Source: Vibrio cholerae ATCC 14035 (GTDB taxonomy: Bacteria; Pseudomonadota; Gammaproteobacteria; Enterobacterales; Vibrionaceae). Taken from it: 32,000 nt of DNA. Positions 11,996-18,472 of this stretch are shown in pieces. Every line of letters begins with the position of its first letter. Position 1 is the stretch's first letter. The translations under genes and the position numbers were made by a program. The notes under the pieces are model-generated. The model saw nothing but the letters and a program-made list of their open reading frames with translations, searched no databases and was not told the origin of the DNA. The stretch lies in assembly GCF_000621645.1 (NCBI RefSeq), contig NZ_JHXR01000004.1:120001-152000 (forward strand), given 5' to 3'.

Positions 11996-13447
11996 TTATG
12001 CGGCATCTTTAAAGTGTGCTGCAATGGCCACGAACTTTTCCTCAACCGCGAGAAAAGCCTCGACCACGACAGGATCAAAATGGTGACCACTGCCTTCGAC
12101 AATAATGGCTTTGGCTTTGTCATGACTAAAAGCCGGTTTATAAACCCGAGCTGAAATCAAGGCATCATACACATCGGCTAACGCCATTAAGCGACCGGAA
12201 AGCGGGATGGCTTCTCCTTGTAATTGCGCCGGATAACCCGTGCCATCCCATTTTTCGTGGTGAGTGAGAGCAATTTCTTTGGCAATGGCGAGGAAGGAGC
12301 TCGTCCCTAAATGGCGCTCAGCAATCGCAAGTGCTTGCGCCCCGATACGCGGATGCTCTTTCATGACGGTGAACTCCTCATCGGTCAGTTTGCCCGGTTT
12401 GAGCAGAACCGAATCTGGAATGCCAACCTTGCCTACATCATGTAATGGCGCGGATTTGTAGAGTAGTTCGATATAAGCCGGGGTTAACAGCGTTGAATAT
12501 TGGGGAAAAGCAGCGAGATATTCTGCTAACGCTTTGACGTATTCTTGAGTGCGAAGAATATGTGCCCCTGTCTCGTTATCTCGTGATTCCGCGAGAGCCG
12601 ATAAGCTGACGATAGCCACATCACGTGTGGTTTTGACCTCATTTTGCGTAGCTTCTAAGCTGTCTAACATCTGATTGGTCAACATGGCGACATTGCCTAA
12701 CTCATCGTTAGAGTAGACGGGAAGGCGTACTTGGAGGTTGCCTTGCGTCACGGCTTGCAATGAGCGCTCCTGATGGTCGAGGATCTCTTTCATCACTCGA
12801 CTCCAGAGTACGAGAATGGCCGTGATGTAGCCGCCTAACACCAAGGACAAAAAGGCAAACTCTTTCACAATGCTGATCTTGCCACTGCCATCAAGTAGGC
12901 GCGCAGGGTTATTTTCCAGCCAGTGAATATCTTTGATTGCGACCATGCTGAGCATCACCGTCAGTGTGCTGATTAAAAGGACGATCAAGCCAATCAGCTG
13001 TTTGACTAAGGAACGTCGCTCATCAGAAGAGAGAGCAAGGTTCTGACTTTGAGGCATTTGGCGCAGCGTTCTTAACTTACTGCTTAATTGCAATAACGCT
13101 CCGGTGAAGAAACCAAATAAGGTCATTCCAAACAGTACTTTTAAATTACTGTCTAACGTGAACTGGTATTGCAGATTGTAGTAAAGCGCTAAAGGCAGGC
13201 TCATTGCGAAGAGGAGTGCCGTGTCCAATTGGATAAATTGCTGTTTTCTTGCCCAAATGTGCTGGCGAAGCAGAGTATGCCGAATCAGCCATGCGAGGAT
13301 GAAGACAGCACCCACCTGAGTGGCGATTTCACGAGTGCTTAATGTCGCGAGAAAAGGACAGACTCGGCTTGTGTAAAGCGCAAAGAGCACTCCAGCAAGC
13401 GCATAGAGTCCAAACGTCAGTGGGGCATGGTAAATCGTGTTTTTCAT
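11996..13447 (-). CDS. Membrane-bound HD-GYP domain c-di-GMP phosphodiesterase with HAMP domain
   Basis: A multi-TM N-terminus is followed by HAMP (NLQVRLPVYSNDELGNVAMLTNQM), the HD motif (PLHDVGKVGIP) and the GYP motif (HHEKWDGTGYP). ATG at 13447 is preferred; the ORF-track start at 13474 is TTG. Neither start has an obvious SD. Confidence 0.85.
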   Translation of the reverse strand: MKNTIYHAPLTFGLYALAGVLFALYTSRVCPFLATLSTREIATQVGAVFILAWLIRHTLLRQHIWARKQQFIQLDTALLFAMSLPLALYYNLQYQFTLDSNLKVLFGMTLFGFFTGALLQLSSKLRTLRQMPQSQNLALSSDERRSLVKQLIGLIVLLISTLTVMLSMVAIKDIHWLENNPARLLDGSGKISIVKEFAFLSLVLGGYITAILVLWSRVMKEILDHQERSLQAVTQGNLQVRLPVYSNDELGNVAMLTNQMLDSLEATQNEVKTTRDVAIVSLSALAESRDNETGAHILRTQEYVKALAEYLAAFPQYSTLLTPAYIELLYKSAPLHDVGKVGIPDSVLLKPGKLTDEEFTVMKEHPRIGAQALAIAERHLGTSSFLAIAKEIALTHHEKWDGTGYPAQLQGEAIPLSGRLMALADVYDALISARVYKPAFSHDKAKAIIVEGSGHHFDPVVVEAFLAVEEKFVAIAAHFKDAA

Positions 13448-13680
13448 AGCAAGTGATAGAACCCAAATGGTCAATAAGTTACGGCTAGTTAAGTATAAGC
13501 AGCATCATTAAAGTGAGTGTGATTTATTATCGTTTTGAATAAAGGCGCGGATTTTATAGACATTGCTGGGTGATGACCACTTTAAAACGAACATTTTTTG
13601 AGTGGTCGTATCAGAGTGTAACGATTGAGAGGAGCAATAATTGCTTTTTGTATCAAGGAATACTGTTAAGATACGTCCTG

Positions 13681-13910
13681 TAGTCGGGGAGCCTGAGAGC
13701 GTATATACCCTTCTTACTTGAAGCTGCAGCGGTGTTGGCTACGTTCGTTCACCCCAATCACATAGTTTATCTATGCTCATGGGGATGAACTCACTTGCCG
13801 CCTACCTGCAACTCCAAGTCGTTTGGGTATAACAACGTGCGAATTAAAGGCTGAGATCGCGTAGCGAGACCCGTTGAACCTGATTCAGTTAGGACTGACG
13901 TAGGGAACTA
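13681..13910 (+). promoter_or_regulatory. TPP (THI-box) riboswitch aptamer upstream of thiD, interrupted in P3 by an ERIC-like element
   Basis: The aptamer reads UAGUC-GGGGAGCC (13681-13693), a 155-nt insertion, GGCUGAGA (13849-13856), UCGC-GUA-GCGA, ACCCGUUGAACCUGAU, UCAGU-UAGG-ACUGA and CGUAGGGAACUA (ending 13910). This matches the conserved TPP core as in E. coli thiM and thiC. UAGU pairs with ACUA to close P1. Confidence 0.8.
13704..13831 (+). repeat. ERIC/IRU-like hairpin element, full-length 128 bp
   Basis: Termini are TATACCC...GGGTATA. The central core CGTTCACCCCAATCACATAGTT / GCTCATGGGGAT resembles the ERIC consensus regions targeted by the ERIC2 and ERIC1R primers (from memory). 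I counted about 95% identity by eye to the copy at 18214. Confidence 0.88.
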
Positions 13911-13959
13911 TCCTCAACCGCTGGTATTGTCTCACCATTGATTTGCAGTTTGGGATCAG

Positions 13960-13977
13960 TTCCTGTTTTCACAGGAG
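13960..13977 (+). promoter_or_regulatory. SD-sequestering hairpin (putative riboswitch expression platform) of thiD
   Basis: UUCCUGU-uuuc-ACAGGAG. The 3' arm contains the AGGAG Shine-Dalgarno (13973-13977), 5 nt before the thiD ATG at 13983. Confidence 0.55.
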
Positions 13978-13982
13978 CTTTT

Positions 13983-14831
13983 ATGTCAACAATCTCTTCT
14001 ATTCATACTCCCATAGTGCTGACTATCGCAGGCTCAGATAGCGGTGGTGGCGCTGGAATTCAAGCCGATATCAAAGCCATTTCAGCGACAGGGGGTTACG
14101 CCTGCTCAGTGATTACCGCGATTACTGCACAAAATACGCAGGGTGTTTCCGCCGTTTTTCCTTTGCCATTAGCAGTGGTTGAGCAACAGTTAGACGCCGT
14201 GTTTAGCGATATTCCCGTCTTGGCAGTCAAAATTGGTATGCTGGCGGATGCCCCAATCATCGCTCTGGTTGCTAAGAAACTACGCCAATATCAACCAAAA
14301 TGGATTGTGCTCGACCCAGTGATGATCTCAACCAGTGGCCATCATTTATTGGCGGCAGAGGCAGTCGAGACGTTAAAACGTGAGCTATTACCGTTAGCCA
14401 ATCTCATTACGCCTAATCTGCCAGAAGCGGCGGTTTTAGTGGGGATGACGCAACAAGAATGGCAGCAGAATCCGCAGCAGGGTGTTACCGCGCTTAGTCA
14501 GTTAAACACACCAGCGGTACTGCTCAAAGGCGGTCACGACCATCAGCAAGCCAACAGTGATGACTTACTGATTCAAAGTGGTGATAGTCGTTATTTCTGT
14601 GCGCCCCGTATTGCTACGAAGAATACGCATGGCACGGGCTGCTCACTCTCATCTGCGATTGCTTCATACTTAGCGCAGGGGGCTGAGTTAGTGGAAGCGG
14701 TGGATAAAGCCAAACAGTATATCCACCAAGCTATTGTGCATGCCGATCAATTGAGGATCGGCCGAGGTTATGGGCCGATACACCATTTTTATCTACTGCA
14801 AATGGCTAAAAGCCAACAGAAAAGCCAATAA
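13983..14831 (+). CDS. thiD: Hydroxymethylpyrimidine/phosphomethylpyrimidine kinase
   Basis: ThiD signatures are VLTIAGSDSGGGAGIQADIK, DPVMISTSG, ITPNLPEA and THGTGCSLSSAIA. The start is set at the ATG with AGGAG upstream, 15 codons inside the ORF-track start. Confidence 0.92.
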   Translation: MSTISSIHTPIVLTIAGSDSGGGAGIQADIKAISATGGYACSVITAITAQNTQGVSAVFPLPLAVVEQQLDAVFSDIPVLAVKIGMLADAPIIALVAKKLRQYQPKWIVLDPVMISTSGHHLLAAEAVETLKRELLPLANLITPNLPEAAVLVGMTQQEWQQNPQQGVTALSQLNTPAVLLKGGHDHQQANSDDLLIQSGDSRYFCAPRIATKNTHGTGCSLSSAIASYLAQGAELVEAVDKAKQYIHQAIVHADQLRIGRGYGPIHHFYLLQMAKSQQKSQ

Positions 14832-16443: not shown

Positions 16444-18075
16444 TTAATGTGGTTTCCGCGCAGAATTCTTAGCAATCAAAGTAAATTGATTCAGCAAGGA
16501 CTCCAATTGTTGTGACAAATGTTCAAGATCGATGCTGATCTCACGCGTCTCACTTGCCGATTGTGATGTGTTGTTCGCGTGATGAGTGATGACATCAACC
16601 TTATTTTGGATCTCATGACTGACTTCCGTGGTGCGTTTGGTCTGCTCTTGAATGCCCATAGCATGGCTTAGCACTTGTTGCATTTCGCTGACCACACGAG
16701 TCATGGCCGCTGAGAGCTCTTCCACTTCGGATGAACGCTGATGCGCATGAGAGCAGACGGTATCTACCGAAGAGAGCGAGGCTTGGCTGTCACGCTGAAA
16801 TCCTGCGATGATGTTTTCAATATTTCCGGTTGCTTCAGTGGTGCGTGATGCAAGATGACGCACTTCATCTGCAACGACAGCAAAACCGCGACCTTGTTCG
16901 CCCGCTCGCGCCGCCTCAATAGCGGCATTCAGCGCAAGTAAGTTAGTTTGTTCGGCAATGCCTTTGATCACGCCAAGAATGGATGATACTTGGCCAGTTT
17001 GATTATTTAATTCCACAATCCGTTGTTTGACCGCCTCAATATCGCCCACCAGATTTTTGATATCTTCACTGGCTGCGTGTGCTTGCTTGGCACTTTGCTG
17101 AACAATACTGGTGGTGTGATTGACCAATTTAGACGCTTCTTCGGTCGCAAACTCCACTTGTTGCTGCTTACCTTGCATATCCGTGATGTTGGTTTGCACT
17201 TCTGCAGTTTCTTTTTGTTGATTGTTGGCCGCCTGATCGGTGACTTGCGCGACATTCGTAAGCTTTTTGGCCGAATCAGCAAGGGAATGGGAAGTGTCTT
17301 GCACTTGTTGCAAGCTGTCTGACACCGTATCCATCAGTGAGTTGATGGATACCGCCAGTTGCCCGAGTTCATCTTTTCTATCGTTTTCGAGTCGATGGGA
17401 AAGATCTTTACTCTTACTCACTTCACACATAAAGGCCGACGTTTTTTGCAAAGGGAGAACGATAATTCTACGCATGAAAAACAGCGTCAACATAAAACCA
17501 AACAGCGCAATAACCGACATAATGCCGACACCAATAAGAGTGCGATGATTCACCATTTGCGTTAAGTGGTTAAGATTAAACTCAAGACGAATTACACCAA
17601 GCACTTCACCTTCTGGTGCGATGTGACAAGCCACACAGTTAGTACCACGATAGTTTTCACTCGACTTCATCGGCAAGGCAACCACAATGCCTTTCCCCCA
17701 ATCGGCTTGATAGGGCTCTATAATGGTTTCGCCTTGTAATGCCCGTTGATCAATTTCATCTTTCGGTTGTTGATCCGTGCTTCCGGGGCCATAAATCTTG
17801 TTTAAAGAAGGCGCTCGAATGACGCGAACTTGTTCAATGCCATCTTGTGCTAATGCTTTTTGGCGTAGCGTCTCTTTTTGTGCCATGGTGCCAGTCAGCA
17901 TCATCATGTTCAGGCTATCAAAGTAGTTACTGGCTTTGTCGTGCAGCTGCTCACTTAACACGGAATGAATGAGATCTTTTTGCTGCCAATATTGATAAGA
18001 CGTTGAGCCCGCCAAAACTAAGGCAAACACGGTGATTAATGTCAGCAGCAATTTACTAAGAATGGATGAGTTCAT
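16444..18075 (-). CDS. Methyl-accepting chemotaxis protein with a periplasmic sensor domain carrying a CxxCH motif
   Basis: TM1 spans about aa 8-24 and TM2 about aa 179-201. CVACH at aa 147-151 (nt 17623-17637) lies in the periplasmic domain. HAMP follows, then the MCP tip [32 protein letters not shown]. Confidence 0.9.
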
Positions 18076-18213: not shown

Positions 18214-18341
18214 TATACCCTTCCTACTTGAAGCTGCAGCGGTGTTGGCTACGTTCGTTCACCCCAATCACATAGTCTATCTATGCTCATGGGGACTCAC
18301 TCACTTGCCGCCTACCTGCAACTCCAAGTAGTTTGGGTATA
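18214..18341 (+). repeat. ERIC/IRU-like hairpin element, full-length 128 bp
   Basis: Same family and orientation as 13704-13831. It lies in the divergent MCP/queD intergenic region. Confidence 0.88.
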
Positions 18342-18472
18342 TTGCATTGATTATTGAGGAATGTTTCTCAGTCGCTGGTGTGAGAGGGGCGGTTTGTCCG
18401 AATTATGTTTTGAATAGCCTTGTTTCAGCAGCAGAGATTTCTTAGTATTGCGGCTCTTTTTATGCCCCGAGA

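Follow-up and report, generated by a model that had tools for sequence, protein, structure and literature searches.

Can an aptamer whose two strands have been pushed apart by a mobile repeat of 128 nt still serve as a riboswitch? This question is raised by the leader of thiD in Vibrio cholerae. The window, i.e., the whole stretch of 32,000 nt of V. cholerae ATCC 14035 that was analyzed (contig NZ_JHXR01000004.1, forward strand, positions 120,001 to 152,000), belongs to chromosome 1, and within its 508-nt spacer 5' of thiD the two parts of a thiamine pyrophosphate (TPP) aptamer lie on either side of a complete repeat of the enterobacterial repetitive intergenic consensus (ERIC) type. Comparison with element-free relatives, structure prediction and polymorphism suggest that the leader probably is a functional translational OFF switch controlling thiD, which tolerates an ERIC nested at the far end of P3. 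The gene downstream is intact:

13983-14831, plus strand: thiD, hydroxymethylpyrimidine/phosphomethylpyrimidine kinase, 282 aa, intact; Pfam PF08543 over the full length, E = 7e-95

The aptamer extends from 13680 to 13911 (232 nt), is complete and is located 72 nt upstream of thiD. It consists of two parts:

13680-13694, plus strand: 5' part of the TPP aptamer, with P1 GUAGU (13680-13684), P2 CGGG (13685-13688) and P3 GCCU (13691-13694), assigned from the RF00059 alignment of the empty-site orthologues
13848-13911, plus strand: 3' part of the TPP aptamer, RF00059 partial match of 46.2 bits, 100% identical to V. mimicus and V. metoecus

The 3' part comprises the P3 strand AGGC, the junction J3-2 CUGAGA (13851-13856), P3a (13857-13867), the P2 strand CCCG (13870-13873), P4/P5 (13879-13904) and the P1 3' strand ACUAU (13907-13911). 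Read directly from the window, the 5' blocks are GUAGUC-GGGG-AGCC (13680-13693) and the 3' blocks are GGCUGAGA (13849-13856), UCGC-GUA-GCGA (13857-13867), ACCCGUUGAACCUGAU (13869-13884), UCAG-UUAGGA-CUGA (13885-13898) and CGUAGGGAACUAU (13899-13911). The conserved blocks of TPP riboswitches are thus encountered in order, i.e., GGGG.GC at 13686-13692, GCUGAGA at 13850-13856, ACCC.UUGAACCUGAU at 13869-13884 and CGUAGGGAA at 13899-13907. With P1-P5, the optional P3a, all blocks and its position in the leader of a thiamine gene, the aptamer resembles the TPP riboswitch family RF00059. The original prediction, made from the sequence of the window, that all blocks are present and in order but split was confirmed for each of them, and so were the 155 nt separating the P3 strands GCC (13691-13693) and GGC (13849-13851) and the complete ERIC-like element of 128 nt (13704-13831) between these strands:

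13704-13831, minus strand (V_AS5 orientation): full-length ERIC-type repeat, 128 nt, transcribed in the thiD leader as a hairpin capping P3; supported by V_AS5 (101.6 bits) and by homology to E. coli ERICs

The Rfam family V_AS5 (RF02818) matches 13708-13832 on the minus strand over model positions 1-129 with 101.6 bits (E = 1e-22), above its gathering score of 96 bits. At Rfam gathering thresholds the whole window gave only two matches, both to V_AS5 and both on the minus strand. The family originates from AS5, a small RNA that had been cloned antisense to VC1225, was seen by sequencing and showed several bands on northern blots (PMC2665243); since V_AS5 derives from this antisense RNA, the Rfam family effectively models the ERIC repeat. 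Moreover, the element aligns to a repeat of E. coli with 100% coverage and 77.5% identity; of 5426 complete E. coli genomes, 5421 have this repeat, with a median of 6 detectable places each. This E. coli repeat carries no RefSeq annotation and, judged by its length, its copy number and PMC2267715, would be the 127-bp ERIC family; 80-97 ERIC copies were reported for V. cholerae (PMC2267715). With its 128 nt, the paired termini TATACCC/GGGTATA, the long imperfect hairpin, the flanking TA and the presence in multiple copies, the element resembles the 127-bp ERIC repeats, also called intergenic repeat units, of Enterobacteria and Vibrio. On the plus strand, i.e., the strand of thiD, it folds into a single hairpin with paired termini (-47.9 kcal/mol, z = -5.6), and since the termini pair it would form one hairpin coaxial with P3; the minus strand folds better than the thiD strand (-61 kcal/mol, z = -9.3).

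A second full-length ERIC/V_AS5 copy lies at 18214-18341 (Rfam 18218-18342, minus strand, 103.7 bits) in the same orientation as the thiD copy, with TA on both flanks, in the spacer beside a chemotaxis-receptor gene (16444-18075, minus strand). Comparison of the two window copies and their flanks showed that each has 128 nt and the ends TATACCC...GGGTATA. In two E. coli genomes, copies 93.8% identical to the V. cholerae element were found (NZ_CP144930.1, 2673306-2673432; NZ_CP144926.1, 2682957-2683083) while all other E. coli ERICs stay below 90%, which suggests a Vibrio-type ERIC on horizontally acquired DNA in these strains.

The insertion point can be read from leaders without the element. 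V. cholerae-clade loci were gathered by exact-protein look-ups of ThiD and orthologous leaders were fetched via ThiD relatives; a ThiD search of genome contigs gave relatives of at most 66% identity among the matches listed. Empty sites were found by aligning the leaders of V. metoecus, V. mimicus and further Vibrio assemblies (L104, L107 and L108), as the original prediction had envisaged, and these element-free leaders match RF00059 with 65.7-67.5 bits over 119-123 nt. No ERIC is present at this site in any of L104-L108. The thiD leaders of other Vibrionaceae reach 70-78 bits with matches of 98-108 nt. The aptamer 3' part, the ends of the linker and the Shine-Dalgarno hairpin are identical among V. 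cholerae, V. metoecus and V. mimicus, in the aptamer 5' part V. cholerae and V. mimicus agree at every position, and V. cholerae differs from the empty-site orthologues only at positions that the model treats as P3-loop insertions. The two states and the remaining parts of the P3 arm are as follows:

Empty site (V. mimicus): GCC UGAGAGCGCAUGAAAGAGUGCGAAUCGAA GGC
Filled site (V. cholerae): GCC UGAGAGCGUA[UA UACCC...GGGUA UA]ACAACGUGCGAAUUAAA GGC
13695-13703, plus strand: 5' side of an older P3 extension (GAGAGCGUA), whose homologue in V. mimicus and V. metoecus is GAGAGCGCA
13832-13847, plus strand: 3' side of the P3 extension (ACAACGUGCGAAUUAA), whose homologue at the empty sites is GAAAGAGUGCGAAUCGA

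Removal of the element together with one TA (126 nt) leaves GAGAGCGUAUAACAACGUGCG, which has 21 nt and thereby the same length as GAGAGCGCAUGAAAGAGUGCG of V. mimicus. The P3 extension is a small loop-capped stem, formed by CGCA/UGCG in the sister species and by CGUA/UGCG in V. cholerae. The ERIC therefore entered the apical loop of a pre-existing P3 extension of 27-29 nt, at a TA. The original prediction had assumed that P3 was formerly closed by a short hairpin, which does not hold for this lineage, in which the extension was already present. TA flanks both copies in the window and excision of 126 nt restores the length of the empty site; the net insertion would be 126 nt if the TA is a target duplication, and the TA could equally belong to the termini of the element. 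In L108 a different extension of 25 nt is found at the same place, and the region of the P3 tip is therefore free to vary. Metagenomes were scanned for a V. cholerae-clade leader with an empty site, and none was found. In a further metagenome scan, GGGTATA occurred at most 30 nt upstream of a TPP core in 13 matches, none with an ERIC; these matches were rejected as a second nested case, the motif being a promoter -10 box or part of a P3 loop.

Next to the primary sequence, the predicted secondary structure supports an intact ligand-binding domain. The 25 base pairs of P1, P2, P3, P3a, P4 and P5 were transferred from the Rfam alignments of the empty sites to the coordinates of the window, and 25 of 25 are canonical and formed in the unconstrained minimum free energy (MFE) structure of 13680-13911 (232 nt, -74.8 kcal/mol). 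In this structure the element continues P3, which is built from 4-5 bp at its base, an internal loop, the helix CGUAU/GUGCG, a 6-nt bulge and the stem of the element. The ensemble cost of adopting the aptamer fold was calculated for the intact sequence, for the sequence with the element excised and for the sister species:

V. cholerae, intact: 1.34 kcal/mol
V. cholerae, 13706-13831 removed: 1.32 kcal/mol
V. mimicus: 1.31 kcal/mol
V. metoecus: 1.56 kcal/mol

The insertion is thus thermodynamically neutral for the isolated aptamer, which adopts the same canonical fold with and without the element at a cost differing by 0.02 kcal/mol. This bears out the suggestion of the original prediction that the element extends P3 and leaves the pocket intact, and the empty sites specify that it does so from the apical loop. 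In folds of successively longer prefixes the 5' strand of the aptamer pairs transiently with the 5' arm of the element and is freed to a weak local hairpin at prefix 13831, P2 and P3 are formed by 13875 and the whole aptamer by 13911.

The sequences flanking the aptamer are consistent with initiation of transcription at its foot and with control of translation:

13664-13672, plus strand: putative extended -10 promoter TGTTAAGAT, conserved as CTGTTAAGAT / CTGTTAGAAT in V. cholerae, V. mimicus, V. metoecus and L108
13958-13979, plus strand: hairpin of 9 bp sequestering the thiD Shine-Dalgarno sequence AGGAG (13973-13977); 13958-13966 pairs with 13971-13979, loop UUUC, -11.3 kcal/mol
13903-13964, plus strand: proposed anti-sequestor GGGAACUAUCCU (13903-13914) with GGGAU-C-AGUUCCU (13952-13964); 12 canonical bp and one bulge, predicted from complementarity

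Transcription would start at about 13679-13680, directly at the foot of P1. The L108 version of the extended -10 motif is TGTTAGAAT, and the sequence farther upstream diverges among the species. A strict sigma-70 scan of 13400-14050 revealed no other promoter on the plus strand and none between the element and thiD. The AGGAG sits five bases before the ATG of thiD, and the hairpin covering it is invariant across V. cholerae, V. metoecus and V. mimicus and within V. cholerae. A Shine-Dalgarno-sequestering hairpin had been proposed as expression platform and is indeed present and conserved; its stem has 9 bp and not 7 as originally counted. The putative anti-sequestor helix is mutually exclusive with P1/P4 and with the Shine-Dalgarno hairpin, GGGAACUAUCCU covering the P1 3' strand and part of P4. 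With the anti-sequestor enforced (ON) the leader has an energy of -97.4 kcal/mol, and with the aptamer enforced (OFF), in which the Shine-Dalgarno hairpin also forms, of -96.0 kcal/mol. The two states are near-isoenergetic and binding of the ligand could therefore decide between them. The same anti-sequestor helix is part of the MFE structure in L108, and analogous GGGAACU:AGUUCUU pairings are present in the leaders of V. nereis and V. hepatarius (L010, L011), which show the same AGUUCYU...AGGAGC arrangement. Translational OFF switches of the thiM type follow a logic of anti-sequestor and Shine-Dalgarno hairpin, and the thiD leader resembles the E. coli thiM-type switch in its Shine-Dalgarno-sequestering hairpin and in the proposed anti-sequestor overlapping the P1 3' strand.

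If the leader is under selection as a switch, its core and platform are expected to vary less than the surrounding non-coding DNA. The ThiD protein of the window is identical in many V. cholerae assemblies, including CP001235, and the V. cholerae sample comprised n = 25 loci from classical, El Tor and environmental assemblies as well as from strains with recombinant thiD alleles. The element is present at the same position in 25 of 25 loci. The variable sites are distributed as follows:

Upstream spacer: 16/190
Between the -10 box and P1: 1
Element: 7/128 (one being a GG insertion)
3' side of the P3 extension: 2
Linker: 1
Aptamer core (80 nt): 0
Anti-sequestor/Shine-Dalgarno segment (33 nt): 0

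Core and platform are thus free of polymorphism (0/113), compared to 25/342 (7%) when spacer, element and P3 extension are pooled (Fisher p = 0.0012); with the aptamer core by itself (0/80), p = 0.007. The low diversity of V. cholerae (about 1%) and the non-independence of the sampled loci limit the power of this test, and this weighs against reading the deficit too strongly as evidence for a working switch.

Taken together, these data are compatible with the following course of events. V. metoecus and V. mimicus would already have branched off when, in an ancestor of V. cholerae, an ERIC integrated at a TA within the loop capping the P3 extension. In the mRNA its terminal inverted repeats would pair, forming a self-contained hairpin of 128 nt stacked on P3 and separated from the three-way junction and the ligand pocket by roughly a dozen helical positions, so that the core of the aptamer would be unchanged. 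Upon binding of TPP, P1 and P4 would hold GGGAACUAU, and the anti-Shine-Dalgarno segment AGUUCCUGU would be able to pair with ACAGGAGCU, by which the Shine-Dalgarno sequence would be hidden and translation switched off. When TPP is absent, GGGAACUAUCCU would pair with GGGAUCAGUUCCU, leaving the Shine-Dalgarno sequence free and translation on.

Three further observations stand against a functional switch. First, a search of the intact window with RF00059 gave no match at the gathering score (54.3 bits). In E-value mode 13813-13923 was aligned with 46.2 bits (E = 4.5e-8), i.e., below the threshold but beyond chance, and this alignment contains the genuine 3' two-thirds of the aptamer and takes the 3' end of the element as a poor surrogate for the 5' half. 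The intact aptamer falls below the gathering score because of the P3 insertion of 155 nt and the insertion penalty of the model. The element-excised sequence would be predicted to pass RF00059, because it has the same length as the V. mimicus leader L101 (65.7 bits) and differs from it only in P3-loop insert positions. Membership of RF00059 by gathering score is not claimed here; structure and context agree with the family throughout, and the element-free orthologues are ordinary members. Second, left unconstrained, the full leader has its MFE (-107 to -108 kcal/mol) in another fold, with the 3' half of the aptamer paired to the linker, and the aptamer state lies 12.9 kcal/mol above the full-leader optimum, compared to 11.1 kcal/mol after excision and 7.5-8.7 kcal/mol in V. 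mimicus and V. metoecus. As modelled, this alternative fold is a caveat for the thermodynamic arguments that is mostly independent of the element. Third, the locus L082 (AP026558.1, a complete genome) lacks one G of the GGGG run of P2 (about 13686) and is otherwise identical at the locus, which may be a natural mutation damaging the riboswitch or a sequencing error in a homopolymer; if this indel is counted, 1/113 sites vary in core and platform and the difference remains at p = 0.009.

The alternative full-leader fold has a simple origin, i.e., the linker (13920-13950) is complementary over about 25 bp to 13838-13866, comprising the P3 3' strand, CUGAGA and P3a. This pairing differs from the proposed anti-sequestor, forms also with the element excised and is less stable in the sister species.

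These observations can be accommodated by a riboswitch that has been inactivated or crippled. The insertion of 126 nt might delay or prevent pairing of the aptamer halves or expose the leader to RNase, thiD would no longer respond to TPP, and the aptamer would be intact only since the insertion is too recent for decay. Such an outcome, which the original prediction had listed as the alternative to a tolerated element, fits the missed gathering score, the single strain with the frameshift-like G deletion in P2 and the higher cost of the aptamer state in the full leader, i.e., 12.9 kcal/mol above the ensemble compared to 7.5-8.7 kcal/mol in the element-free sister species. In addition, the prefix folds show a transient pairing of the 5' GGGG with CCCC of the element before the element is complete, and flanking genes diverge across V. 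cholerae by only about 1%, so that little decay is expected. However, core and platform vary significantly less than the non-coding DNA next to them in the same strains (0/113 compared to 25/342, p = 0.001), with no segregating site in 25 loci that all bear the element while the rest varies at 7%. Excision of the element shifts the cost of the isolated aptamer by 0.02 kcal/mol and accounts for only 1.8 of the 12.9 kcal/mol in the full leader. The element is, moreover, fixed in every lineage sampled, including strains in which the thiD coding sequence was replaced and the leader was kept. Translational platforms of the thiM type are under thermodynamic control and are less sensitive to a delay in folding than a terminator, which also counts against inactivation. 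Overall, loss of the switch is disfavoured and we regard it as unlikely.

A switch that is functional and in which the element has been co-opted is yet less probable. The duplex could provide a site for RNase III or RNase E, or it could be the target of complementary ERIC transcripts (AS5 RNA) opening P3. ERICs of Yersinia are reported to modulate the stability of neighbouring mRNAs, which counts in favor of such a role, as does the fixation of the element in 25 of 25 V. cholerae loci. Furthermore, the strand found in the thiD leader is complementary to the V_AS5 orientation, and V. cholerae produces small RNAs from ERIC copies (AS5 at VC1225; PMC2665243). The Yersinia effect on mRNA stability is cited in PMC2267715; the same study, however, doubts that the ERICs of V. 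cholerae are determinants of RNA stability. The variability of the element (7/128) is close to that of the upstream spacer (16/190), i.e., it evolves at an approximately neutral rate. A G-C pair of the stem is lost with each of the variants 13723 G>A and 13826 G>A, compensatory changes in the stem were looked for among the 25 V. cholerae loci and none was found, and one strain carries a GG insertion. Since its variants fail to preserve the stem, the element behaves as a nearly neutral passenger and would have no function of its own, so that the co-option considered in the original prediction found no support. The more specific idea that the ERIC hairpin is a second regulatory input, by AS5-type small RNAs or double-strand-specific RNases acting on the P3 extension, is highly doubtful; if true, it would tie thiD and possibly other ERIC-bearing leaders to a genome-wide repeat-RNA network, and riboswitch and mobile-element hairpin would be one composite sensor.

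That the 3' end of the element has become the new 5' half of the aptamer, AGUCGUUUGGGUAUAA (13817-13832) replacing UAGUCGGGGAGCC and the original 5' half being a relic, is very unlikely, and the surrogate 5' half in the Infernal alignment (13813-13832) was rejected. This alignment is the only one to RF00059 that Infernal gives for the window; it starts at 13813 and includes the segment, but it owes its 46.2 bits to the authentic 3' two-thirds of the aptamer, lacks a 5' strand for P3 and contains non-canonical pairs in each of P1, P2 and P3. Moreover, the segment is locked in the element hairpin of -47.9 kcal/mol, and 13820 and 13826 within the surrogate are polymorphic whereas the original half is invariant in V. 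cholerae.

The order of the genes in the window is an aminotransferase gene (minus strand), a gene for a MASE10/HD-GYP protein (minus strand, 11996-13474), thiD (plus strand), asnS (minus strand) and the chemotaxis-receptor gene (minus strand). Compared with 13475-13660 of the window, homology between the species 5' of thiD reaches no farther than about 55 nt upstream of P1. V. metoecus and V. mimicus (L095-L102, L104-L107) have a gene for a hexapeptide-repeat acetyltransferase of 205 aa directly 5' of the thiD leader, which V. cholerae lacks, and V. metoecus also lacks the HD-GYP gene at the thiD locus.

In many V. cholerae strains thiD itself has a separate history. In the recombinant-thiD strains the coding sequence differs from the window by 6-12% and the flanks by about 1%. 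At a set of loci (L091-L093, L111-L120) the thiD coding sequence and the thiD-asnS spacer are 12-20% divergent from the window, and the leader, the HD-GYP gene and asnS only about 1%. ThiD variants of 89-94% identity had been considered as deep V. cholerae lineages, which was rejected as their flanking genes differ from the window by only about 1%. The thiD coding region was replaced by localized recombination with the leader being kept, the 5' boundary lying at or just inside the start of thiD. As these recombinant coding sequences reside in ordinary V. cholerae, they do not extend the evolutionary depth over which the leader can be compared. Within the ERIC of the thiD leader, breaks or stretches of N used for scaffolding are frequent in short-read assemblies, as in the Logan contigs L094 and L110, which start 180 nt upstream of thiD, and in L083 with a run of N. 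Automated surveys of the thiD leader will therefore lose many strains.

Compared to known systems, the thiD leader of V. cholerae stands out by the size and the origin of its P3 arm. In other Vibrionaceae thiD TPP leaders this arm has 5-29 nt (matches of 98-123 nt), in contrast to 155 nt here. Long natural P3 arms occur in the TPP riboswitches of fungi and plants, P3 and loop grafts have been engineered, and the distal part of P3 is variable in length and independent of the ligand. Unlike in the eukaryotic long P3 arms, the additional sequence of V. cholerae is an identifiable mobile element, and its acquisition is recent enough for filled and empty sites to be present among sister species. 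Unlike usual ERICs, which are located in intergenic spacers or untranslated regions and may affect mRNA stability, the thiD copy lies between the two strands of an aptamer helix. In the searchable literature no mention of VC1296 and no description of a miniature inverted-repeat transposable element (MITE) or an ERIC inside a riboswitch were found. An ERIC nested in a riboswitch is thus a constellation for which no published description was found; it does not point to a new mechanism.

The locus is a natural experiment, in which an aptamer absorbs a mobile element of 126 nt in a peripheral loop and is apparently still under selection, and the filled allele of V. cholerae and the empty alleles of V. 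metoecus and V. mimicus allow a direct comparison. It also uncovers a blind spot of annotation, as the Rfam gathering thresholds miss a TPP riboswitch in a major pathogen and label only the repeat, as 'antisense RNA'; similar split aptamers elsewhere would be overlooked likewise. For the engineering of riboswitches it offers a natural precedent for large grafts in P3 and demonstrates the modularity of the aptamer. For the study of ERICs and MITEs it provides a case in which the site of insertion is constrained by the structure of an RNA.

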